From Gammaproteobacteria bacterium (GTDB lineage Bacteria; Pseudomonadota; Gammaproteobacteria; RBG-16-57-12): 64,000 nucleotides of DNA. The position numbers were made by a program, and so were the translations under genes. Each line of letters begins with the position of its first letter. The first letter of the stretch is position 1. Below the pieces are notes generated by a model, which saw only the letters and a list, made by a program, of their open reading frames with translations, ran no database searches and was not told where the DNA came from. Where the stretch lies: assembly GCA_022712945.1 (NCBI GenBank), contig JAFLJP010000104.1:144-64143 (forward strand), written 5' to 3'. Below, piece by piece: positions 13,735 to 50,697 of the stretch.

Positions 13735-13735
13735 A

Positions 13736-14910: not shown

Positions 14911-14963
14911 GTAACACTCTCCTAACAGCGATAAGTTTAACCATTTGCAATCATTGCGATTTT

Positions 14964-29383: not shown

Positions 29384-29388
29384 CGACA

Positions 29389-33710: not shown

Positions 33711-35389
33711 AACCACATCAGCTCTGTTTACTGGTGATGCTACTCATCACCAGCCTGTCGCTACAAGCCGCCACTTTGCAGGCCACCGTCGATCGCAATC
33801 CGATCAGCGAAAACGACACCGTACAACTCATTTTGACGCTACGGGATTACGACGGCCCCATCACCCCCGATCTGACCGCACTGGAAGGGTTGTTCGATAT
33901 TCTGGGCAGCCAGCAGAGCAGTCAAGTCAGCATCATCAACGGCCGCATGGACTCCACCAAACAACTGCATATCACCCTCGCCCCCAAACAGACAGGCAGA
34001 CTGGTGATTCCCAGCATCGACATCGGCACGCTACAAAGTCAGCCGATCACCCTGCAAGTGGTTAAATCTGCTAGCCAACAGGCGAGACAGATCAGTGACA
34101 TCGCACTTGAAGTTGAGGTAGATAACACCACCCCCTACCGACAACAACAGGTGATTCTCACGGTACGCCTGATTCACACCATCAACCTGGCGGAAGGGGT
34201 ACTTCCCGACCCGGAAATTTCCGGCGTTGAGATCTATAAACTGGGTGATGACAACGGCTATCAAACCGTAAAAGATGGCCGCCGCCTCGGAGTCATTGAA
34301 CGCCGTTATGCGCTATTACCACAACAGAGCGGCGAGGTGACAATCCCCAGCATTCTATTCCGTGGCCGCGCACAGGAGCGGAGCATGGGCAGCTTTGGTG
34401 GCCTGTTCAACCAGGGGCGGCAGCTACAGGCACGCTCCAAGCCCATCACCCTCAAGATCAAACCGCAGCCCCAACGCAACAGTGGCATCCCCTGGCTACC
34501 GGCCAAAAACCTCACCTTGCAGGCGGAGTGGTCACCCAAACACCCACAATTCAGAGTGGGTGAACCGATCACCCGCACCCTGACCCTGCAAGCGCTCGGC
34601 CTCAGCGCCAACCAACTACCCGAGCTTTCACTCACGCCCCAGGAGGGGTTTAAGGTCTATCCAGATCAACCCCAACTGGAGACCGACACCCACCAACAGG
34701 GTGTCATCGGCACCCGTATTGAGAAGTATGCCATTGTCCCCACCAGGGTAGGGGAAATTACTCTTCCGCCGATCAACCTTACCTGGTGGAATAGTGAGCA
34801 GAACAGGCTCAGCGTGATCAAGCTACCGGCAGAAACTATTCAGGTGCTCGCCGCCACAGCAGAGAGTAACCCCACAGCACTCCCCCTCCCAGCGGTCAAC
34901 AACACCGAAAGTGCCACCACCATCATTGATAACAGTACCCTGTGGCCCTGGCAGCTCGCCAGTGCCCTGCTCGCTCTGGCATGGCTGATCACCCTGTGGT
35001 TATGGTGGAAAAAATCCCCACAACCCGCACCGCTAGATCGCCGACAAACAGCCGGCAGTAGCAGCGCGCTCCGGGTCAACCTGAACGACATTGCCAACAC
35101 CTGTCGCCATAACCAGCCCGAAAAAGCGCGGGATGCACTACTCGCCTGGGGAGAAGCCCGCAACCCGCAACAACCACCCCACACTCTGATCGAATTGGCC
35201 AAACAGCTTGATCAACCACAAGCCCAACAAGCACTAAAGCAACTGGATGAAATCCTCTACAAAGAGCAGAAAAATTGGGATGGAAATGCATGCTGGCAGG
35301 CAATTGAAGAGGCGTTGAAAAAGGCCAAGAGTGAACACAAGAACACAGACAGCAGCAAACTACCGGGACTGTATAGTGCACCACGGTAA
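33704..35389 (+). CDS. BatD-family protein
   Basis: Signal peptide, ATVDRN, ERRYALLPQQSG, WLPA, VGEPITRTL; last gene of the MoxR/Bat operon. Confidence 0.85.
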   Translation: MVKPHQLCLLVMLLITSLSLQAATLQATVDRNPISENDTVQLILTLRDYDGPITPDLTALEGLFDILGSQQSSQVSIINGRMDSTKQLHITLAPKQTGRLVIPSIDIGTLQSQPITLQVVKSASQQARQISDIALEVEVDNTTPYRQQQVILTVRLIHTINLAEGVLPDPEISGVEIYKLGDDNGYQTVKDGRRLGVIERRYALLPQQSGEVTIPSILFRGRAQERSMGSFGGLFNQGRQLQARSKPITLKIKPQPQRNSGIPWLPAKNLTLQAEWSPKHPQFRVGEPITRTLTLQALGLSANQLPELSLTPQEGFKVYPDQPQLETDTHQQGVIGTRIEKYAIVPTRVGEITLPPINLTWWNSEQNRLSVIKLPAETIQVLAATAESNPTALPLPAVNNTESATTIIDNSTLWPWQLASALLALAWLITLWLWWKKSPQPAPLDRRQTAGSSSALRVNLNDIANTCRHNQPEKARDALLAWGEARNPQQPPHTLIELAKQLDQPQAQQALKQLDEILYKEQKNWDGNACWQAIEEALKKAKSEHKNTDSSKLPGLYSAPR

Positions 35390-35533
35390 TCAGACACCCA
35401 GCCGAACGATTATTGCGTTAGTAATCAAAACCTTTTCGTGGTAAGCTCGAAAACTGGTCATGACAGATTTTGATAAGTTCTTGGGGGAGAATGAATCTGT
35501 CATCAAATGGAATGGAGAAAAGGTGGGTAAACT

Positions 35534-35824
35534 ATGCAACAAACCAATGAAGTCGTAAACAAACCCTTTCAACGTGGACGCCACTATGCGGTTTTGGAAG
35601 TGGAAAAGACCGATAGTCCAATAGAAGATAATCCTGAAACGTGGTACCGCTACGTTGTCAACGATGGTAACTCTACCATTACCGGCCTACGCTGTGGCAC
35701 CAAGAAGCAGGTAACTGATTATGCAAAGAAATTTGCCAAAGATCTAAATGAACGGGGTACCAGCAGCAGCTCGGTTTGGGCAACACGCAGTGCGGCCAAA
35801 CCAGCTCAAGCTAAGTCATCTTAA
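35534..35824 (+). CDS. Hypothetical protein (96 aa)
   Basis: Clean ORF with RBS-like AGGTGG and a downstream terminator; no recognised domain. Confidence 0.7.
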   Translation: MQQTNEVVNKPFQRGRHYAVLEVEKTDSPIEDNPETWYRYVVNDGNSTITGLRCGTKKQVTDYAKKFAKDLNERGTSSSSVWATRSAAKPAQAKSS

Positions 35825-35830
35825 AGTAGT

Positions 35831-35984
35831 TAAGGGGCGAGCACGGAATAACTTATGCAATTATGACGCAGAAATTTTTCTCCAGTTCAAAGGCGCATAG
35901 CTGGCCTACGTAACGATTGAGATCGTTTGAACTGGGGTAAAAGATCAAGTCAGAATGTAGACGTTATTTCGTGATCGCTCCTAA
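35831..35984. mobile_element. MITE-like element, family E (TAA-flanked)
   Basis: TAA-GGGGCGAGCACGGAATAAC ... GTTATTTCGTGATCGCTCC-TAA; lies between a stop codon and its terminator. Confidence 0.72.
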
Positions 35985-36009
35985 GGGGGAGCTAACCGCT
36001 CCCCTTTTT
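35985..36009 (+). terminator. Intrinsic terminator
   Basis: GGGGAGC-TAACC-GCTCCCC-TTTTT. Confidence 0.78.
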
Positions 36010-36031
36010 CTTGCCAAAACCTTCCTGATAG

Positions 36032-36169
36032 GTAACTACTCAGCGTGTTTAGATTTTGCCTCAAATCGAGGCATTTTCGCACGGAAAGAGGGAGCATATA
36101 GGACATATGTGACCGATTGAGTACGAAAATAACGAAGAGTTGAGGTAAAAGATGAATAGTGACCCTTAC
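36032..36169. mobile_element. MITE-like element, family B, inverted copy with a decayed right end
   Basis: Aligns along its length with the reverse complement of 13736-13877. Confidence 0.8.
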
Positions 36170-37539
36170 TATTTGATAATTTTATAACACGGCTCATAAA
36201 CCTTTCCAGGCAGCTTCATGCGGTGCCTTTCAACAAATGATGTGAGCAGTACATCCATTGCCTCCATTATCTCCGGCTCTCCACGAAGCTCAAAGTGACC
36301 AAACTCATCAATCGCCCTGATCCCCTCATCCTTAACGTTACCCGCCACAATCCCCGAAAAGGCACAGCGCAGATTAGCCGCTAACAGGTGATTGGGTTGA
36401 TCACGATGCAGTGCCAGATTCAGCATATTTTCATGCGTCGGCTCAAATGGCTTCTGAAACACATGCTCAATTTTAAGCAGCCAGTTAAAATAGTAAGCAT
36501 CACTGGTGGCCCGGCGGAACTGACGCACCTCTTCGATACCTGCCTTAATCTCCTGAGCAACCCGTTCGGGATCACCAACGATAATTTTATAACGCTGCTG
36601 CGCCTCCGGACCCAGGGTCAAGCCAATGAAGTTATCAATTTCATTAAAGTAATACTCCGAATTTTTTGGCCCTGTTAATATAAAGGGAAATGGCATGTCG
36701 GCATTGTCAGGGTGAAGTAAGATCCCTAATAGATAAAGGATTTCTTCTGCGGTTCCAGCACCGCCGGGAAAGACTACAATGCCGTGTCCGCTTCTGACAA
36801 AGGCTTCGAGTCTCTTTTCAATATCGGGCAAAATAACCAGATTATTGACAATTGGGTTAGGTGACTCTGCGGCAATAATGCCTGGCTCAGACATACCAAT
36901 ATAACGCCCACCGGCAATACGTTGTTTGGCATGGGCGATAGTGGCCCCTTTCATCGGCCCTTTCATCGCCCCTGGGCCACAACCGGTACAGACATCGAGA
37001 TGCCTCAAACCCATCTGATGCCCCACCTCTTTGGTGTATTCATACTCCTCACGAAGAATCGAGTGCCCCCCCCAACAGACCACCAGATTGGGATTGGGAT
37101 CAGGCTGTAATACCGAGGCGTTACGCAGAATATGAAACACTGCGTTGGTGATCCCCTCTGAGCTATCAAGATCAAACTTGGGGTTTTCATCTATCTCGTT
37201 GCTGACATAAATAATATCCCTTAAGACAGCAAACAGATGTTCATTAATCCCTTTGATCATCTTGCCATCGACAAAGGCACTTGCTGGCGCACAGTTCACA
37301 TCCAACTTCACTCCACGCTCCTGCTGAATAATCTGCACATCAAAACAGGGGTAACGCTCAAGCAGCTCTTTTCCATCATCCAGTGTGCTGCCACAGTTAA
37401 GTACCGCCAACGAACAGCTTCTAAAGATGTTGTACAGTCCACCCTGGCTAGTATCGAGCAGTTTTTCAACCTCAGCCTGGGAGAGTATATTCAGATGGGT
37501 TTCAGGTGTAATACGTGCGTCAATCAATTCATGTGTCAT
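36169..37539 (-). CDS. ppnN: Pyrimidine/purine nucleotide 5'-monophosphate nucleosidase (LOG family)
   Basis: VVCWGGHSI, TGCGPGAMKGPMKGA, PDIEKRLEAFVR, FPGGAGTAEE, MKLPG. Confidence 0.93.
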   Translation of the reverse strand: MTHELIDARITPETHLNILSQAEVEKLLDTSQGGLYNIFRSCSLAVLNCGSTLDDGKELLERYPCFDVQIIQQERGVKLDVNCAPASAFVDGKMIKGINEHLFAVLRDIIYVSNEIDENPKFDLDSSEGITNAVFHILRNASVLQPDPNPNLVVCWGGHSILREEYEYTKEVGHQMGLRHLDVCTGCGPGAMKGPMKGATIAHAKQRIAGGRYIGMSEPGIIAAESPNPIVNNLVILPDIEKRLEAFVRSGHGIVVFPGGAGTAEEILYLLGILLHPDNADMPFPFILTGPKNSEYYFNEIDNFIGLTLGPEAQQRYKIIVGDPERVAQEIKAGIEEVRQFRRATSDAYYFNWLLKIEHVFQKPFEPTHENMLNLALHRDQPNHLLAANLRCAFSGIVAGNVKDEGIRAIDEFGHFELRGEPEIMEAMDVLLTSFVERHRMKLPGKVYEPCYKIIK

Positions 37540-37589
37540 ATAACAACCTTTACGTTTTCAGGATAAAAAATAGGGTTTTCTAGTTTTTA

Positions 37590-37653
37590 GAGGTCTTTGC
37601 ACGAAAAACAGCCTTTATTCCAACAAGGAAAATACGCACCGTGAAAAGGTCTC
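37590..37653. mobile_element. Mini element, family F (IS5-family, IS1106-like ends)
   Basis: GAGGTCTTTGCACGAAA ... GTGAAAAGGTCTC with TTTA flanks; interior similar to 60511-60572. Confidence 0.65.
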
Positions 37654-38171
37654 TTTATGGTGTAATAAACGTAGGTATTTACAAATACTCTCTGTCCGTT
37701 ATCGGGGAACTTAATTAAACCTTAAACCGCTATTTTTATCGGGCTTGGAATAAATTCATTGTAAAATCAATACTCAGCTATTCAGCAACACACCCGGGGG
37801 ATTTTTCTCCAACAAAGCAAAGATGGTCGAAAAGCTGGAGTTTACTGGAGTTAATGGAGCCGTCTCAAAAAACCAAAATCAATTTTCAATCAATCTCGCA
37901 AAATAGCGACCCCGAGTAATCACACTAATTACAAGGCATCCGACCGCTTCGTTTTATATAGCCGAAGGGCATCAATATATTCAACGTTGCGACTGACTAA
38001 AGCTGACTGATGGGGTTCATAACGGTGGTGTGGCAAGATGAAAAGTTGGCGCTGTAAAATCCGTAGCGATCAAATGGCTGCATTTTCTGGGTAATCGATT
38101 AAATCACTTTCTGATTAAAACAACCCAAGAGACTTGGGTATTCCAATGGAACGTCTATTCAACAAAGCAGA

Positions 38172-38645
38172 TTAAACAACCACCTCACAGCATGGATGAA
38201 TACTCATTGCTTGATGATCACGAATAAGTAACTCTTTTGAAGCCTGTGTAGGAAAATCAATGACCTTCATTTGTAATTCAGCCGAAGAAATCAAGCTTCC
38301 ATCACGTCTAATTTCGATTTTATTGGTAGTCATGCTGCCACATGATGCCGTTATTTTTACTTGGCAGTTCAATTGATCACCCGGTAAAACTGGCCGTAAA
38401 AACTTACAGTTAACCACCTTGGTTAAAATAGCCATCTCACTAAACCCAGAGATAGCCATTGCTAGATGCCCTGCCGATTGGGCCATCACTTCAATAAGCA
38501 GTACTCCGGGCACAATAGGATGCCCTGGGAAATGTGCATCCAATACTGGGGATGACTCTGATATACAAGTCTGGCTCAAAATAATACCTCGTTCAGTATC
38601 AATTTCTAATATCTGATCAAGCATCTTAAACTTTTCTATATTCAC
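38172..38645 (-). CDS. FabZ/FabA-like hot-dog dehydratase (cluster-specific paralogue)
   Basis: HFPGHPIVPGVLLIEVMAQ, KFLRPVLPGD; distinct from housekeeping fabZ at 51914. Confidence 0.85.
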   Translation of the reverse strand: MNIEKFKMLDQILEIDTERGIILSQTCISESSPVLDAHFPGHPIVPGVLLIEVMAQSAGHLAMAISGFSEMAILTKVVNCKFLRPVLPGDQLNCQVKITASCGSMTTNKIEIRRDGSLISSAELQMKVIDFPTQASKELLIRDHQAMSIHPCCEVVV

Positions 38646-38775
38646 TCTAAATCCCTTTGTTGGAAGTAAAAATGGTGATCAAAATTGCCATTAATATTTA
38701 CAATTAAACCTGTGTTAGATTTGTATTTACCCTCACCTAAAACACCGATGGTTGGTACAGGAAGAAAAACCCGCA

Positions 38776-41112
38776 CTATATCGACTCATCCGCCATCGTC
38801 ATTTGGCCCGGCTTCTCCCCCGGTAAACGCCTTAAGAAGGTGAGTACCAATGCCGGTAACAGCAGCAAATCAAACAGCAGTGCAAATACAATAGTCATAC
38901 TGGTTAAGATACCCATCATCGCGTTTTTCTCGAAGGATGATGTTGCTAGCAACAAAAAACCAATCACTAAGAGCACTGAGCTGATAATGATCGCCTTAAC
39001 TGTTTTATCAAAGGTCTCTTGAACACTCTGTTCTGGTGTTAACCCTCGTTTGAGCCCATCCACATAGTGGTAGAGAAAATGCACCGTATCATCCACAATA
39101 ATACCAATCACCATGGCCGATACTCCGGCCAAACCCATGGAGATTTCACCTTGCAGAAAATACCAAACACCGAATGCTGCGCCGACAGGTAATAGGTTAG
39201 GAATTAAGCTCAGTGCTCCGATATATAACGAGCGAAAAACGAATGCCAGTGCAATTGATATAACCAAAAAGGCCAATGAGGCTCCCTGCAACAAACTAAT
39301 GATACTTGTTTCCCCAATGTGAGAAAAAATCACAGCAGGGCTGGAGTGAATAATTGAAATGCCATTAACTTGGTTTTTTTGTAACCAGACTTCTACCGAC
39401 TCTTCAAATCGGATAACTTGCTGTGAACTCATGTTATTAAGCCGTGCCGTTATCTTAAGTGATGATTTATCAAAACTCACTTGATTACCAAAATCCTTAC
39501 CAAAAGGGAGCGACATCTCATAGAGTAGGAAGTGTTGCGCGGCTAAATTGGGGTTATCTGGCAAACGATAAAAAGCGTCATCATCACCATTCATTAAACG
39601 ATTAATCAGCTTTATACGGTGCAGTGGACTGTCTGTAATGACAACCTCATCACGACTTAAAAGATAGCGATCAAAGGCTTCTAAAAATTCAAGAAAATCG
39701 GATTGGAATATTCCACTTTCCTTGCCGGATGAAAGTGAATAATCGATATTGTAGATCCCTGAAAAATGCCGATCAATCTCTTCGGTATCGGCACGAAAAT
39801 CCACTGATTCGCTAAAATACTTAATCAGGTTATCATTCAGTTCATTATGAAAACTCATTGATGCAAGTAATAGTGAAAAGGGCACCATAACGAACAGAAT
39901 CCATTTTCTTGAGTTGATAATCCAACTCGATACAGAGGTAATATGATCAATTCGTTGATATGCCATACCCTTGGCACGGTCTAGCGTTATCTTCATCAAC
40001 AGTTGAGGTAAAACAGTCAGTGAAAGTAACAGAGAAAATGCCACACCTAACGCAACAATATTACCCAAATCTCTGAAGGGTGGTGAGTCACTACTGTTCA
40101 TGGCAATAAAACCAATGATAGTGGTGAGATGGCTAATGATCACTGGCTTGATATTACGTTGGTAGGAGTGTTCGACCGCTTGTTTCTGCGTCATCCCTAA
40201 ATTAACTTGTCGCTTTATATAACTAATAATATGAATCGATGAAGCGACAATAACAGTGAACATAATAATAGGTGCCGACACCGATGGTGCGGAAAGCTTG
40301 ATACCTAACCATCCCGCTAAACCCAACGAACCCAGTGCAGATAGCAGCATCAGTAAAAGAATAGCACCTGCCGCAGGCAATGAGCCTAAAATGATGCCCG
40401 CTGCCAGTAATACAAACAGCATCATTAATGGAATGAGTGTGACAAAGTCCTGCTTGGCGGCCTTAAAAAAGGCACCGTTCATCTCGATAATACCGGTGAC
40501 ATAAAAGTGATGTTCAGGATAACGCTGTGTTAGTTGGGCAATCAGCTCATCTACTTCATGAGTGATGCTTAATATTTCTGCTTTATGGTTAATGCCCGGT
40601 AGCATTACGGTGGCATTAATCGCACTGTAACGACCATCTTCCGTAATCAAACTGCCAAGTAGCTCTCGCTCTTTGGGTGCATGCTGCTTTATAAAATTGA
40701 TACGTTGCGGATCTAGATCATCTCGATCAAATAGAAATTCCTCGATAACGATATCATCGCCATCAGCACTGCTATGGGGATAATTTGTCAATGAATCGAC
40801 ACGAGTCACATGAGGGACCAGCCACAGCTGCTCCGTCATTTCATGTAATAGCGAGAGACTTTTTTGATTATAAATATCGGAAGGTGACTCCACCATAATG
40901 AAAACATTTTCAGTGGTGGTATAGGTATTCTGCATCTGCTCTAGTAATTGAAGACCGGTATCATCTTCATCAAAAAAGACTTTATAATCACTCGCCAGGC
41001 TCATGTTTTTTAAGCCAACAGCGGCAATAATGGTTGCCACTACAGCCCATAACCACAGCCACTTCCCCCAGCGTGAGAAAAGCAGTTGAGTCACCCATTT
41101 TTCATTATGCAT
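38776..41112 (-). CDS. MMPL/RND-family lipid transporter
   Basis: Two repeats of TM, periplasmic loop and TM bundle; SHLTTIIGF, LIPNLLP, GIIVDDTVH. Confidence 0.9.
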   Translation of the reverse strand: MHNEKWVTQLLFSRWGKWLWLWAVVATIIAAVGLKNMSLASDYKVFFDEDDTGLQLLEQMQNTYTTTENVFIMVESPSDIYNQKSLSLLHEMTEQLWLVPHVTRVDSLTNYPHSSADGDDIVIEEFLFDRDDLDPQRINFIKQHAPKERELLGSLITEDGRYSAINATVMLPGINHKAEILSITHEVDELIAQLTQRYPEHHFYVTGIIEMNGAFFKAAKQDFVTLIPLMMLFVLLAAGIILGSLPAAGAILLLMLLSALGSLGLAGWLGIKLSAPSVSAPIIMFTVIVASSIHIISYIKRQVNLGMTQKQAVEHSYQRNIKPVIISHLTTIIGFIAMNSSDSPPFRDLGNIVALGVAFSLLLSLTVLPQLLMKITLDRAKGMAYQRIDHITSVSSWIINSRKWILFVMVPFSLLLASMSFHNELNDNLIKYFSESVDFRADTEEIDRHFSGIYNIDYSLSSGKESGIFQSDFLEFLEAFDRYLLSRDEVVITDSPLHRIKLINRLMNGDDDAFYRLPDNPNLAAQHFLLYEMSLPFGKDFGNQVSFDKSSLKITARLNNMSSQQVIRFEESVEVWLQKNQVNGISIIHSSPAVIFSHIGETSIISLLQGASLAFLVISIALAFVFRSLYIGALSLIPNLLPVGAAFGVWYFLQGEISMGLAGVSAMVIGIIVDDTVHFLYHYVDGLKRGLTPEQSVQETFDKTVKAIIISSVLLVIGFLLLATSSFEKNAMMGILTSMTIVFALLFDLLLLPALVLTFLRRLPGEKPGQMTMADESI

Positions 41113-42175
41113 CTGCCACGCACTCCGTGGAGAGATAATGGTCTAATTCAGTCATGATATGGTCTACATCCTTCTCCACACCCATGACTAATTCAGATGC
41201 ACGACAACTCAGCCATTTTCTACCGACAATAAAAAAACCTGACTGCGGAGTAACGCCATACTCATGCATATAACCGTTGTCATTTACACAATCGGGCAAG
41301 GCAATCCATTGCACATTGTCGCGATAACCACTACACCAGATAACCACATCAACTTGTTGCTTACCCCCATTCTTGAAATAGAGTTTATTACCATCACATT
41401 TGACGGTTCGCTCTACGATGTTGACACCCATCTCACGCAAACGTTTGTTATTAAAGTCAGCACAAGGCACTGGGTTACGCTTTTGTAACACGCGTGCCAC
41501 CGCACTCTCTTTATCCGCAAAGAGAATACCGAGTTTTTTAAGCCACCAAAACAGATCCTTTCCGAGTACCTTATTGGGTGGTAAACCACGCTTACTTCCA
41601 GTCGAGAGTGTGACATGAGACGTTTGACTCAGTGCGCCTGCAATTTGCCTTCCCGTGGCACCACTCCCGACCACGACCACTTGACTACCCGCTGGCACAT
41701 CAGCAATAGAGGGCAGCATTGCATCCAACTGCAATACCTCTTCTGATAGGTTTTGGCTTATCTCAGGAATCTTCGGTACTTGGTTGGAACCCGTTGAATC
41801 AACAATCGATTTGGCCCATAAGGTTTGACCATCACTCAGTGATACTTTAAACAGCGCCCCTTCTCGCGAAAGCTGCTCAACATTGCACTGTTCAAGTATG
41901 TTCAGCTGCATTGCTTTTGCATACGCCTGCAAATAGTCAGCCATCTCTATAGCACTGGGGAACCCTTGCGGGTCACCCGGAAAAGTTAAACCCGGCAGCG
42001 AACAAAACTGCCTAGAGGTAAAAAGAACCATTCCTTTCAGACGTTTACGCCATACATCGCCCACGCAATCACGGTCAAGCAACCGATAATCCAGCCCTTT
42101 CTGCTGTAATTTCCTTGCGGTATACAGCCCGTTTTGTCCCGCACCAATTACGATACACGCCAATATGTTCATCAC
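41105..42175 (-). CDS. Flavin-containing monooxygenase (class B, CzcO/ArsO-like)
   Basis: VIGAGQNG (FAD), GDVW..R...LFT, VVGSGATG (NADPH), IWCSGY. Confidence 0.82.
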   Translation of the reverse strand: MMNILACIVIGAGQNGLYTARKLQQKGLDYRLLDRDCVGDVWRKRLKGMVLFTSRQFCSLPGLTFPGDPQGFPSAIEMADYLQAYAKAMQLNILEQCNVEQLSREGALFKVSLSDGQTLWAKSIVDSTGSNQVPKIPEISQNLSEEVLQLDAMLPSIADVPAGSQVVVVGSGATGRQIAGALSQTSHVTLSTGSKRGLPPNKVLGKDLFWWLKKLGILFADKESAVARVLQKRNPVPCADFNNKRLREMGVNIVERTVKCDGNKLYFKNGGKQQVDVVIWCSGYRDNVQWIALPDCVNDNGYMHEYGVTPQSGFFIVGRKWLSCRASELVMGVEKDVDHIMTELDHYLSTECVADA

Positions 42176-42453
42176 ACCACCTCATCTAGTTCGGGTGCGT
42201 GAGTCATCCGTAAGCTTTCTATGTGGCTAAAGAGTGAATTCATAGTGGGGTAGTTAAATGCCAAGGCAGGGTCTACCTCTATTTGTAGATGATCCTCAAT
42301 AATTGTAGAGAGGTGAACATGATCAGCCGAGTCCAAGCCCAAACGAGAGAATGAGGCATCGCAATCACTCTCTAGAGAGAAGCTGGGCAAGCGCGATACG
42401 ATGTACTCCACAATCTCGCTCTTCAACGTTTCCTTACAATAATTTGCAGTCAT
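42172..42453 (-). CDS. Acyl carrier protein
   Basis: FSRLGLDS phosphopantetheine site and FNYPT tail; ATG at 42453 with AAGGA RBS. Confidence 0.88.
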   Translation of the reverse strand: MTANYCKETLKSEIVEYIVSRLPSFSLESDCDASFSRLGLDSADHVHLSTIIEDHLQIEVDPALAFNYPTMNSLFSHIESLRMTHAPELDEVV

Positions 42454-42472
42454 GATTTCATCCTTTTGAATA

Positions 42473-44152
42473 CTAGAGTTGATGTACAAGATCGCGACAA
42501 GCAATGCGCTTCACTTTGCCACTGGTGGTTTTTGGAATAATGCCGGGTTTCACAAGGTGCAGTTGATCAATAGCGATACCATGCTGTTCAACGATTGCCT
42601 CACGCAAATCACGTTTAAGTTGTTCATGATTTTCATGAAGTAGTGCACGTTTATTAATTTCAACAATGGCAACTAATTTTGTTAATTCCCGCTCTTGGTA
42701 AGTGAATACGGATGCACCATTATTTCCCGAGGCAAAGTGATGGCTGTTACAGGTTCGTTCAATATCATAGGGGTAGAGATTACGCCCACGAATAATCAAC
42801 ATTTCCTTAATGCGCCCTGTTACATACAGATGGCCATTTAATAGGAACCCCATATCCCCGGTACGCAAATAGTGTTGCTGACTACCAATAATCTTAGCTT
42901 GGAAAGTTTCAATGCTTTTTTGCCTATCATTCCAATAACCTTGCGCTAACGCATCGCCACTTAACCAGATTTCGCCTATTTCATGTTCAGTGCATGCCAA
43001 GCAACTATCAGGATTCACAATTTTGATATTGATAGCCGGTGCGGCAATACCACAGTCCACAATATCCTGACCATCAACAGACGGTACGACCTGCCCTTGT
43101 GCCAAATCAGACTTAGATAAATTAACCGTTTGCATGCCGCTGGCCGCAGGGCCACCAGAAATAAAGAGTGTGCATTCCGCCATTCCATAACAGGGGAAAA
43201 AGGCTTTTGAATCGAACTGACACGATTGAAAACGCTCACTAAAAGCTCGCATGGTATTAGCATCAACAGGTTCCGAACCATTGAGTGCAACCTTCCAGCA
43301 GCTCAAATCAATTTTAGAGAGATCCTCTCTCTCTTTGATCATTTTCAAACAGTGTTGGTAACCAAAGTTAGGGGCTGCCGAGCTATGAATTTTATAATGG
43401 GATATCAGCTCTAACCAACGACGGGGTCGCTGAATAAAGTTGAGTGGTGGCATAAATACATACGTTCCACCCAAAAACAGCGGTTGTAACATGTGGCCTA
43501 TCAATCCCATATCATGAAACTGGGGCAACCACCCTCCGGCAATCAAACCCGGCTGGTGCCCACATGCCTGCATAATCATGTACTGATTTGATACAATATT
43601 TCCATGACTAATTAAGACACCTTTCGGACGACCGGTTGAACCAGAGGTATATTGAATAAAAGCCAGTTGTTCCGGCTTAACCCTCGGCAGTTCAACCGGT
43701 TGATCTGATTGGTCAGTTTCATCTATCCAATGCCACTGGCGCTCCGCCAATGATGGAAGGCTCTGTAACTGAGATAACAGCTGTTGCTTAACTTCTGATA
43801 TCGTTAAAATAGCCGCAATATTCGCATCATCAAGAATATCTACCGTTCGCTGTAATTGTTGTGCATTTCGTGTCAAGTTCAAGGGTACTGCGGTTACACC
43901 CGCAGCTAGGCAGGCTAAGAAGTTAACTACGAAATCCAGGCCAGCAGGATAGAGTAACGCTATATTCTTTTGATGATAACCTTGGGCTATCAACCATTGT
44001 GCTCGCTGCTGGACCCGTTGATTTAGCTGTTCATAGTTGAGTCTTTGCGCACTTTCAACATTATGAGGCTGGAAAATAGCGGCTACTTTCAAGCCGTCCT
44101 TATGCACCTGTTCTGATACCGCATCCATAAAAAGTGAGTGTTTTATTGCCAT
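42473..44152 (-). CDS. Fatty acyl-AMP ligase (FAAL)
   Basis: AFIQYTSGSTGRPKGV, WLPQFHDMGLIG, PCYGMAE followed by an FAAL-type insertion, RTGDMGF, IIRGRNLYPYDIE, PKTTSGK. Confidence 0.9.
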   Translation of the reverse strand: MAIKHSLFMDAVSEQVHKDGLKVAAIFQPHNVESAQRLNYEQLNQRVQQRAQWLIAQGYHQKNIALLYPAGLDFVVNFLACLAAGVTAVPLNLTRNAQQLQRTVDILDDANIAAILTISEVKQQLLSQLQSLPSLAERQWHWIDETDQSDQPVELPRVKPEQLAFIQYTSGSTGRPKGVLISHGNIVSNQYMIMQACGHQPGLIAGGWLPQFHDMGLIGHMLQPLFLGGTYVFMPPLNFIQRPRRWLELISHYKIHSSAAPNFGYQHCLKMIKEREDLSKIDLSCWKVALNGSEPVDANTMRAFSERFQSCQFDSKAFFPCYGMAECTLFISGGPAASGMQTVNLSKSDLAQGQVVPSVDGQDIVDCGIAAPAINIKIVNPDSCLACTEHEIGEIWLSGDALAQGYWNDRQKSIETFQAKIIGSQQHYLRTGDMGFLLNGHLYVTGRIKEMLIIRGRNLYPYDIERTCNSHHFASGNNGASVFTYQERELTKLVAIVEINKRALLHENHEQLKRDLREAIVEQHGIAIDQLHLVKPGIIPKTTSGKVKRIACRDLVHQL

Positions 44153-44162
44153 TTTATCTCTC

Positions 44163-45341
44163 CTAACTGGCAAAGCTCATTGCACTTAGTTGTTTCACAC
44201 ATTGGTTTAAGGCGGTCACAAAATTTTCTATATCTGCAGTGGTTGTATATTGACCAAAGCTGACACGAATTGAACTCTGTATGCGCTCCTCATCCAAGCC
44301 CATTGCCAGTAAAACAGCAGAGAGTGTTTTTTGTTTATTATTACTACATGCAGAACCAATGGAGATAATAAAACCATGTTTTTTATCCATCAATACGGCA
44401 AGTGCTTCACCTCGAACACCCTTTATGGCCATGTTCAACGTATTACTCAATGCATTTGCATAAGTCGTATCACCATTAAACTCAACACTGATATCAGCCT
44501 GTTGTATTAGATCAACCATGAGATGTTTACACGCCTGTGCATGTTGATCCCATTGTGCGATAGCACACTTAGCCTCTTCTGCTGCTTTGGCCAAGCCACT
44601 AATAGCCAATAAGTTTTCAGTACCAGAGCGCAAGCCTAACTCCTGACCACCACCATGAATGAGCGGTGAAAGTGAGTTGTTCTCTTTAATGTAAAGCCCT
44701 CCAACCCCTTTGGGGCCATAAAACTTATGTGCAGAGAAAGAGAGGTAATCAATATCACACGCTTCTACATCAATGGCGCGTTTTCCTACCAGTTGAACAC
44801 CATCCACGTGGAGTTTTATTCCCCTAGCTGAGGTGATTTTTGCAACCTCAGAAATGGGCTGAATAACGCCCGTTTCGTTATTGGCATACATCATTGAAAC
44901 CAGTTGTGTATCTTCTTGCAGTGCGGCCATAAAGTCACTGATGGAGATAGCACCATTGGACTGTGGTTTAAGGTAACTGACCTTAAAACCAAACTGTTTC
45001 TCGAAGTAACGTACCGTTTCGAGTACCGAGGGATGCTCAATAGCCGTAGTAATAATATGACCCGGTTTATTCAGATGATTAAACAAGCGCCCTTTTATTG
45101 CCCAATTGTTAGCCTCTGAGCCACCCGAGGTGAAAAATACTTTATCTGCTGAGGTTCCGAGCATTTCAGCTACCGATACTCGGGCCTGCTGCATTGCATT
45201 ACGGTTACGTATTGCCTCAGCATGGTTACTTGACGCATTCGCAAACTGCCCCAGTGTTGCGGTCATGGCTTCTGCAACAGCAGGAGAAACTGGCGTTGTT
45301 GCGTTGTAATCAAAATAGCCTGCCAACTGCTGCCTATCCAT
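44163..45341 (-). CDS. Cysteine desulfurase (IscS/NifS type)
   Basis: DYNATTP, FTSGGSEANN, NNETG, SAHKFYGPKG (PLP lysine), RSGTEN, GSACS (catalytic Cys); ATG at 45341 overlaps the upstream stop. Confidence 0.92.
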   Translation of the reverse strand: MDRQQLAGYFDYNATTPVSPAVAEAMTATLGQFANASSNHAEAIRNRNAMQQARVSVAEMLGTSADKVFFTSGGSEANNWAIKGRLFNHLNKPGHIITTAIEHPSVLETVRYFEKQFGFKVSYLKPQSNGAISISDFMAALQEDTQLVSMMYANNETGVIQPISEVAKITSARGIKLHVDGVQLVGKRAIDVEACDIDYLSFSAHKFYGPKGVGGLYIKENNSLSPLIHGGGQELGLRSGTENLLAISGLAKAAEEAKCAIAQWDQHAQACKHLMVDLIQQADISVEFNGDTTYANALSNTLNMAIKGVRGEALAVLMDKKHGFIISIGSACSNNKQKTLSAVLLAMGLDEERIQSSIRVSFGQYTTTADIENFVTALNQCVKQLSAMSFAS

Positions 45342-45711
45342 TAGCAACATCCTCTGCAACGCGTTGCTCAGATAACAGCTGGTGCAGTTCATTAAGAATA
45401 TCCATGCAGTGATGCTGTGATGGGCTTAATTCACCCAGCATCTGCTGCTTATACTCAACATCTCGTTGGCACACAGAATCTAATGACTGGTTTAGCAGTG
45501 AATCACAAAAGATATTGGCCGTGGCGACTGATGTAGCACACCCCCAAGCACGAAAAAGAGCGTTAGAAATCTTATTGTCATCGAGAAGAATCTGTACACG
45601 GATACGATCACCACACACCGAGTTACCTACTTCCAGTTCGATATCTGCTGACTCAAGATCACCCACGTGTTGTGGATCGGAAAAGTTTTCAATAATAATA
45701 TCGTTATACAT
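45334..45711 (-). CDS. IscU/NifU-N-like scaffold or sulfur-carrier protein
   Basis: GNSVCGD, AWGC and HHC keep three cysteines; LPPVK chaperone motif replaced by LSPSQ. Confidence 0.87.
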   Translation of the reverse strand: MYNDIIIENFSDPQHVGDLESADIELEVGNSVCGDRIRVQILLDDNKISNALFRAWGCATSVATANIFCDSLLNQSLDSVCQRDVEYKQQMLGELSPSQHHCMDILNELHQLLSEQRVAEDVANG

Positions 45712-45730
45712 TGTTTCTTACTCCCTGAAC

Positions 45731-45751
45731 GAGTGCCACAAAGTGGCACTC
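45731..45751. repeat. Perfect intergenic hairpin between the luxE-like and iscU-like genes
   Basis: GAGTGCCAC-AAA-GTGGCACTC, no T tract. Confidence 0.6.
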
Positions 45752-45759
45752 TCTATTCC

Positions 45760-46935
45760 CTAAGCGACTACCGGACAGTTCTGCTCTGCCTCGACATCAT
45801 CCAGACGCTTATCTAAATTGACCGCACAGCAACCAAATTCAGTAGATTCTGGTAAACGCATAATGTATTGCATACGCTGACCACTACGCCCCGATGGGCT
45901 TTGTTCAGGAAGCAAGCGCACCAAATCCTCAGTTAGAATAAAGCCCGGTGTAGAGCGTGCCAGTGGATCTAAAATAGCCAGTTGTCCCACCTCACCATCA
46001 GCGACCTCTTCGTCAAGCTTTTTGGGATTTCGGATTGAAAAGTGAATAAAAGGTGATACATGCTTCACACCATGCTCATCATCAATAGCCACTACGTTAG
46101 ATTCTACCAGCGCATAAATATCACGAATCTGTGATGGCTCAACGCCTAAGTACTCCATGCACTCTTGGTTGAACTCTTCTCGCGAGAGCATCTCACCACT
46201 AAAGCGCTTCCAACCACCTAGGGTGATAATAAAACTGCCTTTATCCAGTTTAATACGCGTATTAGTTGCCTTAAGGTAGCGAATAAAGCGGTTGATTAAG
46301 AAGGGCGGGCCAATAATGTGGCGATCAAATTTATTCTTCCACTCATCTAATTGAGAGAGTGCATCCTCAACCACAAGACTCTCATTTTTAACCATAAATT
46401 GGTGAGTGTCTAATAGGCCAGCCAGCATATTTAATGCCTTAATCATGCCCATTTCTGGAATCTCTTCAGTTGAAGGGCAAAGATACAGGCCCGCACCTTT
46501 AGATATTTTCAGGAACTCACGGTACATCGAGTAGATACCTAAAATGGCATTATCAACCGTATCGGAGCAACGACGCGACACACTGGGAATCCCGGAAGTG
46601 CCTGTACTGCGCATTTCAAGCTCAATATCCTTTAGGTTGACTGATAACAACTTATGACTGTCATTTGATTTGAATAAGCTAATGGGTATCAATGGCAGTT
46701 TTAGTAAATCCTCAGGTGTGCTTACACTGTTGGGTGTTACCCCTTTTTGATCACAAGATGCTCGGTAAAACGCATTATTTTCATAATGAAAGCGATATGC
46801 TTGAAGAATTAGTTCTGTTTTAAAGGCCAGCAACTGGCTATCAGGCATTGCGTACAGCTCACTTACCGAAGACAACGCAACTTTCACGGGATCTAAACCC
46901 AGTTTTTCTAGTTGCTCAAAGCACTCGTTAATCAT
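45760..46935 (-). CDS. LuxE-family acyl-protein synthetase
   Basis: LPLIPISLFK, STGTSG, GPPF, TLGGWK, IRDIY, ILTEDL and C-terminal GCC (acyl-accepting Cys position). Confidence 0.85.
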   Translation of the reverse strand: MINECFEQLEKLGLDPVKVALSSVSELYAMPDSQLLAFKTELILQAYRFHYENNAFYRASCDQKGVTPNSVSTPEDLLKLPLIPISLFKSNDSHKLLSVNLKDIELEMRSTGTSGIPSVSRRCSDTVDNAILGIYSMYREFLKISKGAGLYLCPSTEEIPEMGMIKALNMLAGLLDTHQFMVKNESLVVEDALSQLDEWKNKFDRHIIGPPFLINRFIRYLKATNTRIKLDKGSFIITLGGWKRFSGEMLSREEFNQECMEYLGVEPSQIRDIYALVESNVVAIDDEHGVKHVSPFIHFSIRNPKKLDEEVADGEVGQLAILDPLARSTPGFILTEDLVRLLPEQSPSGRSGQRMQYIMRLPESTEFGCCAVNLDKRLDDVEAEQNCPVVA

Positions 46936-47107
46936 AGTGACACTCCTTGTTTATATTTTAAAAATACTACGTACAACACACCTAAAAATGGGGATAAGTT
47001 ATCCGTATTCTGTGGTTATAAAACAATCAAAAACGACAGATATTCATGCGTGCCGTAGCACCGATTATCACTATCGAATAAAAATTGAGGAATTAGTAAC
47101 TCAACCA

Positions 47108-47128
47108 CTATGCACTAAAAGTGCATAG
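47108..47128. promoter_or_regulatory. Perfect palindrome upstream of the luxE-like operon, candidate operator
   Basis: CTATGCACT-AAA-AGTGCATAG. Confidence 0.4.
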
Positions 47129-47402
47129 AGTTGCTCATGGACTGCAAGTCGCTCACCCCACTATGAGAACTGACAAATATTGAACTAATTTCATTTTGTA
47201 ACAGACCGGCTGAAGCCTCGGCCTCCAAAACCCTCTGGTTGACTAGCGAACTAAGACCAATAAATATGGCTATGCCCTATTTTGGGCTTACACATAAGTA
47301 ATCGCGAGGGATCGTACTGGAATGCTATCAAACTTAACCTCGACTGCCTCACTATTTTGAAACAAAGTTTTTCGACAACGGGGAATCGATGATAGTCCAC
47401 TT

Positions 47403-47456
47403 AGGGATGTAGAATTTATTAAAATACCGCGCTTACTTGTCTTTTTGCCCACCCCC
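47403..47456. mobile_element. Truncated MITE family D (one arm)
   Basis: AGGGATGTAGAATTTATTAAAATACCGCGCTTACTTGTCTTTTTGCCCACC is the reverse complement of the right arm of 28201-28361. Confidence 0.8.
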
Positions 47457-47472
47457 TGAAAATCGCTACCTG

Positions 47473-47639
47473 CTAGGAGCTTGTCCGAGAATAGAGGTCG
47501 TAGCGAGAGAGTGTGATTTTTAGTTCATTTTTTCGACAATTTGAGGCGGATGGTTGTTCCCTTTAACGAAAATTGGCGGGAAAATGAGCAACAAACACGC
47601 TTTCGCAGTAGACCTATCTATTCTCGGACAGGCTCCTAG
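47473..47639. mobile_element. MITE-like element, family C
   Basis: CTAG-GAGCTTGTCCGAGAATAGA ... TCTATTCTCGGACAGGCTC-CTAG; collinear with 21553-21718. Confidence 0.85.
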
Positions 47640-47712
47640 ACATCAAATAACTCTGATAAGAATGAATATGTCACATACAATAGCAAGGTTAAAAACAACC
47701 ACCGAGAAATCG

Positions 47713-48489
47713 ATGCTAATTGTCATATCCCCAGCCAAAACTCTTGATTATGAGACACCGAGCATAACCAACAGCTATAGCCAAAGTGATTATCTTCAGG
47801 AGGCTCAGCAGCTGGTTAAACAGGTGCGGCATTTCAGTGCTGCAGATCTATCAACTATCATGAGGGTCAGTGACAAAATCGCCCAGTTAAATGTCAGCCG
47901 CTTTAAGCAGTGGCACACCCCGTTTACCCCGGATAATGCGAAGCAGGCGATACTGGCCTTCAAAGGGGATGTTTACAGCAGTTTGGATGCTAGCAGTTTT
48001 AGCGATGGTGATTTTCAGTTTGCCCAGCAGCACCTGCGCATCCTCTCCGGGCTTTACGGCCTGTTACGCCCTTTAGACTTGATGCAGCCTTATCGTTTGG
48101 AGATGGGGCGTAAAATCGAAACGGCGCGGGGGAAAAATCTCTATCAATTCTGGGACGACATAATAACGGCCGGTATCAACCAACAGATGTTGCAGAGCCA
48201 TTCAGATTACCTGATCAACCTCGCTTCAAATGAATATTTCAAAGCGGTCAAGCCAGCATTGATCAATGGCGAGATTATCACCCCGCTGTTTAAAGATTAT
48301 AAAAGTGGCAGCTATAAAGTAGTGGGTATTTACGCCAAGAGAGCACGGGGAAAGCTAAGCCGCTACATCATTAAAAATAGACTGAATTCACCTGAAGAGT
48401 TGAAAAGCTTTACCGACGACGGCTACCGCTTTAATTCACAGCTCACTCAGGGCAATGAGTGGGTCTTCAGCCGCAATCAAGAATCATAA
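47713..48489 (+). CDS. yaaA: Peroxide stress protein YaaA
   Basis: MLIVISPAKTLDY, AFKGDVY, ILSGLYGLLRPLD, INLASNEYF, YAKRARG. Confidence 0.95.
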   Translation: MLIVISPAKTLDYETPSITNSYSQSDYLQEAQQLVKQVRHFSAADLSTIMRVSDKIAQLNVSRFKQWHTPFTPDNAKQAILAFKGDVYSSLDASSFSDGDFQFAQQHLRILSGLYGLLRPLDLMQPYRLEMGRKIETARGKNLYQFWDDIITAGINQQMLQSHSDYLINLASNEYFKAVKPALINGEIITPLFKDYKSGSYKVVGIYAKRARGKLSRYIIKNRLNSPEELKSFTDDGYRFNSQLTQGNEWVFSRNQES

Positions 48490-48500
48490 AATTCCCTGTT

Positions 48501-49100
48501 TTATCTTTCAAGCTGTCGCCTCACCGGGCCAAAGCTGCGACGGTGGATTGGTGTAACACCCAGCTCTTGCAGTGCCTGCAAGTGTATTTTGGTTGGATAA
48601 CCGCTGTGCTTGGAAAAACCGTAACCAGGATACTCAATATCCATCTCATCCATTTCACGGTCCCGTGCCACCTTGGCGATAATGGAAGCAGCACTGATTG
48701 CCGGTATCTTCTCATCACCCTTAATAATCGCTTCAGCACTACAGTTAATTTCAGGCAGTTTATTGCCATCCACCAGTACATGCTCAGGTGATATTGGTAG
48801 TGCCGCTACCGCACGTGACATCGCCACTAATGATGCCTGCAAAATATTAAGCTCATCAATCTCCGTTGCTTCAGCCCGTGCAATCGACCACGCCAATGCT
48901 TTGCTTTTTATCTCATCGTACAGCTTTTCCCGCTGTTTTTTGCTCAGTTTTTTGGAATCAGCCAGCCCGTCAATGGGGTTCTTCGGGTCAAGAATAACCG
49001 CCGCTGCCACTACCGGGCCAGCCAACGGGCCACGCCCAACCTCATCAACCCCAGCAATTAAACGTTTGTCAGTGACAAAATTGAATTCACCTTGCATCAA
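48501..49100 (-). CDS. rnhB: Ribonuclease HII
   Basis: [36 protein letters not shown]. Confidence 0.97.
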
Positions 49101-50242: not shown

Positions 50243-50686
50243 TCACTTTGTCAGGTAATTTTTGAATTCATTTATACCAATAACCTGGTTACTCTCTTTA
50301 ATCGCTTTGCTTAGCCCATCAAAAACAATAATTTTAAAAGTCGTTCCTTCGAGGATGTTCGCTGAATCTTCTCTTGTCATATAGTAACCCTGACTCTGCT
50401 CCTCTTCACTATTGGCTATAACGTACAGGTACTCCATCTCTTCAGCATTCACCTTACTTATAACATCAATCTGCTCCTTATATTCTGGATTAGAACTGGA
50501 TGATGTTGCCACAATTACCATTTTCGGCTGAGCATCAAGATTAAACTCTTTTTTAAAATTCGACGGAGCCGTCAGTGAGTTATACTCTTCGCCATGTGCA
50601 TCATAAAATCTGAATTCTGCTGACTCACTGGTACTAACACAACCAGAAAGTACAATTAGTAATACAATCCACATCGAAGTTTTCAT
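50243..50686 (-). CDS. Putative lipoprotein, candidate immunity protein
   Basis: MKTSMWIVLLIVLSGC lipobox; AT-rich; directly downstream of the toxin-like gene. Confidence 0.65.
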   Translation of the reverse strand: MKTSMWIVLLIVLSGCVSTSESAEFRFYDAHGEEYNSLTAPSNFKKEFNLDAQPKMVIVATSSSSNPEYKEQIDVISKVNAEEMEYLYVIANSEEEQSQGYYMTREDSANILEGTTFKIIVFDGLSKAIKESNQVIGINEFKNYLTK

Positions 50687-50697
50687 GGCACACATCC

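Follow-up and report, generated by a model that had tools for sequence, protein, structure and literature searches.

An inserted gammaproteobacterial operon joining a Cys-Cys LuxE-like enzyme to its own IscS and IscU, a candidate for sulfur-containing lipid biosynthesis

Introduction

Thiocarboxylic and acylsulfenic acids are rare in natural products, and few routes to them are described in the literature examined. In thioplatensimycin biosynthesis, an acyl-CoA synthetase and a sulfur-transfer enzyme (PtmA3/PtmU4) are reported to produce the thiocarboxylic acid (PMC6006322). In sulfenicin biosynthesis, TaaJ/TaaI, which draw on a cysteine desulfurase and sulfur-carrier proteins, are described as making a thioacid, which is S-hydroxylated to an acylsulfenic acid by the group-B flavoprotein monooxygenase TaaH (bioRxiv 10.1101/2024.10.16.618611), and for thiolactomycin the conversion of a carrier-bound thioester to a thiocarboxylate is reported (bioRxiv 10.1101/2024.12.18.629141). 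LarE is described as forming a thiocarboxylate in an ATP-dependent manner with sulfur from IscS (PMC9283937). For LuxE, Lys238 and Arg355 are reported to be essential for adenylation and thioesterification, and Cys364, in a flexible C-terminal motif, is the acylation site (PMC9157457). Here, we describe an eight-gene operon at positions 38172-46935 of a 64,000-nucleotide (nt) window, the whole stretch of DNA analysed (contig JAFLJP010000104.1 of a gammaproteobacterial genome, GCA_022712945.1), in which a LuxE-like enzyme is combined with an IscS/IscU pair, a fatty acyl-AMP ligase (FAAL), an acyl carrier protein (ACP), a flavin monooxygenase (FMO), an MMPL-type exporter and a FabZ-like dehydratase. 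The operon probably makes an oxidised sulfur-containing fatty-acyl product.

Each of the described systems resembles the locus in part. Compared with LuxE (7XC6, PMC9157457), the island protein shares the Pfam family, the PaaK-like fold, the catalytic Lys and Arg and the counterpart of the acyl-accepting Cys on a flexible loop; however, it has an extra adjacent Cys, its partner genes are IscU and IscS (71 of 80 related loci) instead of the reductase, LuxC is absent from operon and genome, and luxAB and luxD are absent from the operon. The thioplatensimycin and sulfenicin pathways are similar to the one proposed here in that they would share carboxyl activation, sulfur transfer and, for sulfenicin, S-hydroxylation, with cysteine as the ultimate sulfur source. 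However, PtmA3/PtmU4 and TaaJ/TaaI rely on an acyl-CoA synthetase, an enzyme resembling CoA transferases and carriers of the ThiS/MoaD type borrowed from primary metabolism. In the island, these functions would fall to a LuxE-like enzyme and the IscS and IscU encoded beside it, acting on a simple fatty acyl group carried by ACP. FAAL-ACP lipid clusters with MMPL/LolA-like export are well known from mycobacterial FadD-MmpL systems and aryl-polyene clusters. As in those, a FAAL would load the carrier and an MMPL/RND pump, accompanied in the relatives of the island by a LolA-like and an outer-membrane protein, would export the lipid, but the known clusters extend the chain by polyketide synthases or ketosynthases and are not known to carry sulfur-mobilising genes. 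LarE and TtuA share, as proposed, ATP activation of a carboxylate or carbonyl and sulfur from an IscS persulfide or Fe-S (iron-sulfur) sulfide (PMC9283937); unlike the island enzyme, they are PP-loop ATP pyrophosphatases, and they act on a nucleotide cofactor precursor or on tRNA rather than on lipids. The initial annotation of this DNA knew of no characterised pathway with this gene set, and likewise no published description was found in open-access papers and bioRxiv, the literature within the scope of our search (subscription journals and supplements lay outside it). Each gene family has been described before, and novelty would lie in their combination and in the proposed thioacid route.

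Results and discussion

Gene content of the operon

All eight co-oriented genes named in the initial annotation were recovered as minus-strand open reading frames (ORFs) at the same coordinates, and Pfam and NCBIfam profile searches assigned them to the same families. The features are as follows.

45760-46935, minus strand: LuxE-like acyl-protein synthetase with PaaK fold and Cys369-Cys370 at the acylation site (PF04443, 1.4e-40)
45334-45711, minus strand: IscU/NifU_N-type scaffold or sulfur carrier (PF01592, NifU_N, 7.9e-20)
44163-45392, probable start ATG 45341, minus strand: NifS/IscS-type cysteine desulfurase (Aminotran_5, 7.7e-72; NifS, DndA and IscS models)
42473-44173, probable start ATG 44152, minus strand: FAAL (AMP-binding and DIP2-like C-terminal domain)
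42172-42504, probable start ATG 42453, minus strand: ACP (PP-binding, 8.9e-09)
41105-42175, minus strand: short group-B FMO, SMFMO/ArsO-like (Pyr_redox_3, 5.4e-20)
38776-41112, minus strand: MMPL/HAE3-type RND lipid exporter (PF03176, 3e-33; TIGR00921 HAE3)
38172-38645, minus strand: FabZ-like hot-dog dehydratase (PF07977, FabA/FabZ, 7.9e-20)
38123-38139, minus strand: terminator-like hairpin just past the FabZ-like stop codon (consensus scan)
37540-47553, no strand: inserted island between ppnN and yaaA (comparison with same-genus genomes)

All eight proteins score below the NCBIfam equivalog cut-offs and are therefore divergent paralogues, not housekeeping genes. When the spacing was computed from the probable starts with Shine-Dalgarno-like sequences, the IscU and IscS genes overlapped by 8 nt, as did the FMO and MMPL genes, the ACP and FMO genes abutted, and the IscS/FAAL and FAAL/ACP gaps were 10 and 19 nt. 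The close spacing claimed earlier from the iscU-like to the MMPL gene holds. The LuxE/IscU gap is 48 nt, and the widest in the operon is the 130 nt between the MMPL and FabZ-like genes. With 5 terminator-like sites in the region compared with a mean of 8.6 in shuffled sequence, the evidence for the hairpin is weak, and no Rfam family matched across 35000-49000 at E <= 0.1.

A profile search of the operon and its flanks found no ketosynthase, nonribosomal peptide synthetase (NRPS) module, LuxC or radical SAM enzyme in the operon, in agreement with the absences noted before. LuxC (PF05893) was not found anywhere in the genome, which is 100% complete by marker genes. A look for sequencing runs gave six DNA metagenomes, two of which may be the source of this DNA, and no RNA data set. 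Two further desulfurase genes, 37-38% identical to the operon IscS-like protein, are present on another contig of the genome (C141).

LuxE-like enzyme

The LuxE-like protein matches PF04443 with 139.8 bits (gathering cut-off 24.9) and reaches 151.1 of the 550 bits set for the NCBIfam LuxE equivalog. It can be aligned over residues 37-370 to LuxE of the LuxC-LuxE complex (7XC6), with K243, R360 and C369 corresponding to LuxE K238, R355 and C364. The P-loop and K243 are invariant in the clade (K243 in 76 of 76 members), and a vicinal Cys-Cys at 369-370 is found in 74-75 of the 76. In the wider LuxE family, 817 of 1.84 billion representatives matched at E <= 1e-3. Among the best 150 of these, a single Cys, mostly in an Arg/Lys-Gly-Cys context, was present in 127 and the Cys-Cys pair in 5 (39-65% identical to the query); 15 were fragments without the region, and 3 had no Cys there. 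Across the family members compared, the doubled cysteine marks a discrete clade, which is the one associated with IscS and IscU.

The AlphaFold model of the protein (mean predicted local distance difference test, pLDDT, 76) is nearest to the adenylate-forming enzymes PaaK1/PaaK2, with TM-scores of 0.65-0.68. The P-loop and the C-terminal 26 residues, which include the Cys-Cys loop, were modelled below pLDDT 50; the loop is thus predicted to be flexible, as expected for a mobile loop. A predicted complex of the LuxE-like and IscU-like proteins scored 0.02, which speaks neither for nor against an interaction.

The cysteines of this protein also bear on an unlikely alternative, in which IscS and IscU would build an Fe-S cluster for an enzyme encoded in the cluster, either as a transferable sulfide on the LuxE-like protein, as in the [4Fe-4S] enzymes LarE and TtuA, or as a redox cofactor with a sulfur-free product. 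Proteobacterial and cyanobacterial members carry four invariant cysteines, since C123 (56 of 56) and C153 (55 of 56, with Ser in one) are kept in addition to the pair, and LarE, with its tri-Cys [4Fe-4S] cluster, is described as making thiocarboxylates together with IscS (PMC9283937). However, all 18 members from Bacillota and Chloroflexota have Asp in place of C123 and Met or Phe in place of C153, and the Cys-Cys lies in a loop predicted to be flexible. C259 is variable across the clade. A universal three- or four-Cys Fe-S site on the LuxE-like protein was rejected, since only the vicinal pair is universal.

Sulfur proteins, carrier loading and monooxygenase

In the IscU-like protein (47.5 bits; equivalog cut-off 192.4), C33, D35, C58, H101 and C102 align to the ligand residues of the IscU chain in the IscS-IscU complex 4EB5 and are invariant in 19 cluster-linked homologues, which would suit an Fe-S role. 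In the consensus, LEPSQ precedes His-Cys at the place where the chaperone-binding motif LPPVK is found in canonical IscU. The IscS-like protein (313 bits; IscS equivalog cut-off 643) retains the pyridoxal phosphate lysine and the mobile-loop cysteine when aligned to 1ECX. Both genes adjoin the LuxE-like and FAAL genes and not isc genes, the housekeeping context being iscR, hscBA and fdx. Against the Fe-S alternative, general Fe-S assembly is served by the other desulfurase genes of the genome, on C141.

For the FAAL, the top NCBIfam model is the NRPS/polyketide synthase subfamily PRK05691 (441 bits), followed by PRK05850, PRK09192, PRK12476 and FadD28/32/21, all below cut-off, and the nearest solved structures are all FAALs (7R7E-G, 3KXW, 3PBK and FadD23/32/28). 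The Asp-Ser attachment motif of the ACP is visible in its sequence. The monooxygenase, with GxGxxG motifs at residues 11-16 and 170-175 of 356, has the small bacterial flavin monooxygenases 4USR, 4A9W/4C5O and 4USQ as nearest solved relatives; SMFMO, the Stenotrophomonas protein of 4A9W, presumably oxidises thioethers. Its best-scoring model is MSMEG_0569, then ArsO, both below cut-off. The FabZ-like protein (84.4 bits; equivalog cut-off 113) has a His/Glu motif that aligns to 3D6X. The catalytic motifs, which had been described as all intact, are so in the LuxE-, IscU-, IscS- and FabZ-like proteins, the FMO and the ACP, whose residues were checked.

Conservation of the gene set

The LuxE-like protein gave 354 matches in an index of 5.8 billion proteins. 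The best 120, which are 58-96% identical, include Microbulbifer, Shewanella, Colwellia, Alteromonas, Rheinheimera, Moritella, Pseudomonas, Rubrivivax, Cognatishimia, Calothrix and other Nostocales. When a single genome was scanned for each species, 128 loci were obtained, of which the best 80, all from other species, were kept for locus counts. In these loci (<=10 kb on each side), the eight proteins of the window served as tblastn queries, and a match had to have E <= 1e-5 and cover at least half of the query, criteria under which small divergent ACPs are under-counted.

The triad of LuxE, IscU and IscS was present in 71 of the 80 loci, so that synteny, the lack of which had been named beforehand as a ground for giving up the proposal, is conserved. 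Of the remaining nine loci, eight are Chloroflexota contigs, including several very short ones, and the ninth lies at a contig end of a metagenome-assembled genome (MAG). Among the 71 triad loci, the monooxygenase was found in 58, FAAL in 46 and MMPL in 31. The commonest type combines the triad with FAAL and FMO (42 of 71), with ACP detected as well in 34, and all seven genes, the FabZ-like gene aside, occur together in 22 loci. Some kind of exporter accompanies most triad loci. The loci span Proteobacteria, Cyanobacteria, Bacillota, Bacteroidota and Chloroflexota, and the module is present in well over a hundred species, including every Photorhabdus sampled, many Xenorhabdus, as well as Pseudomonas, marine Gammaproteobacteria, filamentous cyanobacteria and Priestia plasmids. 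In a plasmid collection, 34 records matched the LuxE-like gene, 15 of them Priestia plasmids at ~49% identity.

For the surrounding genes, 1481 ORFs from the 80 loci and the window were clustered, and representatives were scanned against Pfam. Recurrent neighbours are an AraC regulator, a LolA-like protein, outer-membrane proteins, SRPBCC, HlyD and MFS proteins. The cluster types are as follows.

Marine Gamma- and Alphaproteobacteria: AraC, LuxE, IscU, IscS, FAAL, ACP, FMO, MMPL, LolA-like protein (PF17131) and a 396-amino-acid (aa) protein without Pfam match; in Pseudomonas, Cellvibrio and Betaproteobacteria, a DUF1302-like protein takes the place of the 396-aa protein
Cyanobacteria: as in the marine Gamma- and Alphaproteobacteria through FMO, then an SRPBCC protein
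Xenorhabdus: HlyD and MFS transporters, AraC regulator, LuxE through FMO
Photorhabdus (14 species) and Gilliamella: LuxE, IscU, IscS, ACP, ketosynthase, MaoC dehydratase, ketoreductase; the Photorhabdus locus also has a divergently transcribed FMO gene in addition to HlyD and MFS genes, and FMO was not found in the Gilliamella locus by tblastn
Bacillota, type one (Bacillus manliponensis; Priestia plasmids): FAAL, FMO, ACP, LuxE, IscU, IscS
Bacillota, type two: LuxE, IscU, IscS, U32-family protein, a 291-303-aa protein of unknown function, acyl-CoA-dehydrogenase-like protein, MFS
Bizionia: AraC, LuxE, IscU, IscS, TolC/HlyD/AcrB pump, FMO; FAAL and ACP not nearby
Grimontia: MMPL, LolA-like protein, partner, LuxE, IscU, IscS, type II thioesterase and a FAAL-ACP-C-A-PCP megasynthase
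Chloroflexota: methyltransferase directly upstream of LuxE, preceded in two loci by Lgt and a P-type ATPase with three heavy-metal-associated domains

The triad is the invariant part, the monooxygenase is its usual companion, and acyl supply and export are interchangeable. Because the acyl-supply part can be exchanged between loci, the triad works as a module on acyl substrates. The initial annotation would have been undermined by relatives that always carry LuxC or an Fe-S client; in the clustering of the 1481 ORFs, no LuxC-sized family recurs in the 80 loci, and FAAL-type loci show no recurrent Fe-S family either. This also argues against the Fe-S alternative, as does the six-gene cassette on the Priestia plasmid, which contains no recognisable Fe-S client. 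In support of that alternative, a U32-family protein lies beside the triad in nine Bacillota loci, and U32-family enzymes are known to bind Fe-S clusters. The U32 and 291-303-aa proteins are always found 3' of the triad in these nine loci (e.g., 12733-14576 in L065). FMO was not found in seven of the nine, and the pair might be an oxygen-independent substitute for it, although the other two loci have both.

The cluster types also help to assess two further explanations. First, in thiolation of the carbon chain, which we regard as very unlikely, a persulfide would add to a 2-enoyl-ACP to give a 3-mercapto or thioether lipid, which the FMO would then convert to a sulfoxide. Enzymes that would form a 2-enoyl group occur in three types (FabZ-like in the island, ketosynthase-ketoreductase-MaoC in Photorhabdus/Gilliamella and acyl-CoA-dehydrogenase-like in Bacillota), and the presumed thioether oxidation by SMFMO-type enzymes, the nearest solved relatives of the FMO, would fit its last step. 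However, the commonest type (FAAL-ACP-FMO, 42 of 71) has neither dehydratase nor dehydrogenase, and chain thiolation would leave the ATP-dependent LuxE-like enzyme, with its conserved counterpart of the acyl-accepting cysteine, without a role. Particularly, the FabZ-like gene was found by tblastn in 0 of the 80 loci. No orthologue was found in 40 relatives of the host genome either, where the best match reached 38% identity and the remaining ones resemble housekeeping FabZ. The gene sits inside the ppnN-yaaA insertion, and the housekeeping fabZ, at about 51938-52303 in the lpx cluster of the window, encodes a protein 28% identical to it. The FabZ-like dehydratase is thus not part of the conserved pathway, and because of its absence from the 80 loci and the 40 relatives, the supply of an enoyl acceptor by a dehydratase, suggested in the initial annotation, does not hold as a general step.

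Second, the genes could form a stress or metal-homeostasis module for membrane-lipid repair or modification, or for handling copper, arsenic or reactive sulfur, in which the FMO and the exporter would serve detoxification. This seems highly improbable to us, even though several observations would suit it: the MSMEG_0569 and ArsO models are the best below cut-off for the FMO, copper-type neighbours occur in Chloroflexota, where two loci have the P-type ATPase ahead of the LuxE-like gene, and on the Priestia plasmid, which has PCYCGC-motif, DinB and AhpD-like proteins nearby, and sulfenicin is reported to have been crystallised with Cu(II) (bioRxiv 10.1101/2024.10.16.618611). However, a FAAL-ACP pair, a set of ketosynthase, ketoreductase and dehydratase or an NRPS module is a hallmark of building a molecule, not of repair, and dedicated exporters and the AraC regulator travel with the cluster. 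In addition, a metal-binding product would fit synthesis of a sulfur-containing acyl product equally.

Proposed pathway

We tentatively propose, at somewhat less than an even chance, an ATP- and persulfide-dependent route to a fatty thiocarboxylate, followed by S-oxygenation and export. We infer all of its chemical steps, the order of FAAL/ACP and the LuxE-like enzyme, and the identity of the product. The FAAL would adenylate a fatty acid and load it onto the ACP. Next, one cysteine in the flexible C-terminal Cys-Cys pair of the LuxE-like enzyme would carry the acyl group in thioester linkage; the enzyme would acquire this group either through adenylation of its own or from acyl-ACP. The IscS-like desulfurase would take sulfur from cysteine, and the IscU-like carrier would pass it as a persulfide to the neighbouring cysteine, where attack on the thioester would give an acyl-disulfide whose reduction would free a fatty thiocarboxylic acid. 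Finally, the group-B FMO could oxygenate the sulfur, for example to an acylsulfenic acid, and the MMPL pump could move the lipid out of the cytoplasmic membrane. A thioesterase or reductase for chain release is found in none of the FAAL-type clusters, which fits a sulfur-dependent release step.

That the sulfur ends up in the product had been suggested in the initial annotation. The clade-specific Cys-Cys at the acylation site and the thioacid and acylsulfenic-acid precedents make this plausible, although the chemistry stays inference, and we judge the chance that sulfur from the private IscS is incorporated into an acyl-derived product to be slightly better than even. More doubtful is the broader idea that the LuxE-like Cys-Cys enzyme and its private IscS/IscU are an unrecognised thiocarboxylate synthase module, a third independent thioacid route, which together with the FMO would give fatty acylsulfenic acids or related S-oxygenated thio-lipids. 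Metal binding or signalling would be conceivable functions for such thio-lipids, whether targeted to membranes or exported.

Several points weigh against this pathway. First, it leaves unexplained why a second ATP-dependent activating enzyme would be needed beside the FAAL-ACP thioester. Second, FMO was not found by tblastn in 13 of the 71 triad loci, including seven Bacillota loci of the U32/acyl-CoA-dehydrogenase type. Third, IscU-type proteins are classically Fe-S scaffolds, and the IscU-like protein retains all the Fe-S ligand residues. C123, C153, C369 and C370, invariant in Proteobacteria and Cyanobacteria (55-56 of 56), could serve as cluster ligands, and one cluster type, that of the nine Bacillota loci, carries a U32-family protein. 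Fourth, TaaH is described as having glycines at 16, 169 and 171 and a His150/Tyr154 linker motif (bioRxiv 10.1101/2024.10.16.618611); the FMO has no His or Tyr in residues 146-160, the stretch that corresponds by residue number to TaaH 150/154. Fifth, the AraC regulator, LolA-like protein and outer-membrane partner of the nearest relatives were absent from the window (tblastn, E < 1e-4), and the island copy may be poorly expressed or incomplete without them.

If the proposed pathway is correct, thioacid and acylsulfenic-acid chemistry on plain fatty acids is supplied by a small, mobile set of six to eight genes whose host genera are a focus of intensive natural-product mining. LuxE-family enzymes would then gain a role outside bioluminescence, and sulfur donation by an IscS/IscU pair would extend beyond Fe-S proteins to a metabolite. 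Its small size makes the cassette directly accessible to heterologous expression and isotope labelling.

Insertion of the operon and state of the island copy

The operon is flanked by ordinary gammaproteobacterial genes, with BatD and ppnN on one side and yaaA, rnhB, lpxB, lpxA, lpxD and bamA on the other. In three genomes of the same genus, ppnN and yaaA are 80-278 nt apart, compared with 10,014 nt here (37540-47553), and when 40 relatives (3 from the genus, 3 from the family and 34 from the class) were searched by alignment, none yielded the LuxE-like gene. The eight-gene operon is a horizontally acquired insertion between ppnN and yaaA. In a FastTree phylogeny of 76 LuxE-like sequences, the island copy falls together with Marinobacterium, Microbulbifer and a clade of cyanobacteria, and the protein is 75-77% identical to Calothrix proteins; both observations point to transfer between phyla. 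The AT-richness described for the operon is real, with 43.3% GC against 48.7% for the genome, but it is modest (2% of 1092 equal-length genome windows are as low).

The initial annotation also placed MITE (miniature inverted-repeat transposable element) remnants on both sides. Repeats of about 55, 81, 165 and 127 nt are indeed present at 47400-47454, 47473-47553, 35830-35985 and 36032-36158, and they recur on dozens of contigs of the genome at 85-100% identity, often at contig ends. In appearance they are intergenic repeats of the REP (repetitive extragenic palindromic)/MITE type, and the fragmentation of the assembly is probably due in part to them. However, only weak repeat matches of 50-70 nt were found at about 37590-37660, and no terminal inverted repeats bounding the island were found. 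Judged by this distribution, the repeats are genome-wide intergenic repeats, and a role as island boundaries is not borne out.

The island could also be a decaying or silent remnant that makes no product, lacking its regulator and outer-membrane partners, which we consider quite unlikely. Among the loci, the AraC regulator is present in 32, the LolA-like protein in 18 and the 396-aa partner in 19, and none of them is in the window, where the only AraC-type tblastn match is an unrelated gene near 7.7-7.9 kb. Related loci have decayed, with partial LuxE, FAAL and MMPL genes in one (L035) and an interrupted IscS gene in another (L005). However, the eight reading frames are intact with catalytic residues kept where checked, and Shine-Dalgarno-like sequences at the starts and overlaps typical of translational coupling also argue against a silent remnant. 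In addition, another contig of the genome (C81, ~2612-6864) carries a paralogous MMPL gene (36% identical), then a LolA-like gene (about 40%) and the 396-aa partner (about 31%), a set that might substitute for the missing partners.

Additional observations on related loci and flanking genes

In the L005 locus (Calothrix sp. PCC 7716, 11649-14943), the IscS match extends over only 56% of the query and the cluster is interrupted by three unrelated ORFs, and in L035 (Marinobacterium aestuariivivens) the LuxE, FAAL and MMPL matches cover only 55-74%; both copies show signs of decay. Two Chloroflexota MAG contigs (L072, 5375-11143; L078, 4357-10491) have a Cys-Cys LuxE-like gene without IscS nearby, in the order P-type ATPase with three heavy-metal-associated domains, Lgt, UbiE-type methyltransferase and LuxE-like gene, a context that hints at a metal link or an S-methylated product. 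On Priestia megaterium plasmid NZ_CP058264.1 (L082, locus 2081-12248), the cassette is flanked by a TetR regulator, a YhgE/Pip membrane protein, a PCYCGC-motif lipoprotein, a DinB-family protein and a carboxymuconolactone-decarboxylase-family (AhpD-like) protein. A 415-aa protein of the representative library (P0187), in which LuxE-like segments run into an IscU-like N-terminus, looks frame-shifted and may be a gene-calling artefact, not a true fusion.

The Photorhabdus clumping-factor operon pcfABCDEF is described as six genes adjoining pluR (PMC4683029, PMC5407808). We considered it as the same locus as the Photorhabdus cluster and rejected it, since the latter has eleven genes and AraC and lies between ilvC/ilvY and ilvA. 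The exclusion is not strict, since the products of the pcf genes are listed in neither paper.

Within the window, a 150-aa minus-strand ORF without Pfam match is located between lpxB and lpxA (50243-50695). On the plus strand, a run of genes at 28424-35389, ending in a VWA/TPR protein (31857-33710) and BatD (33704-35389), resembles a Bat-type aerotolerance operon and has a GC content of 55-58%, well above the genome mean.

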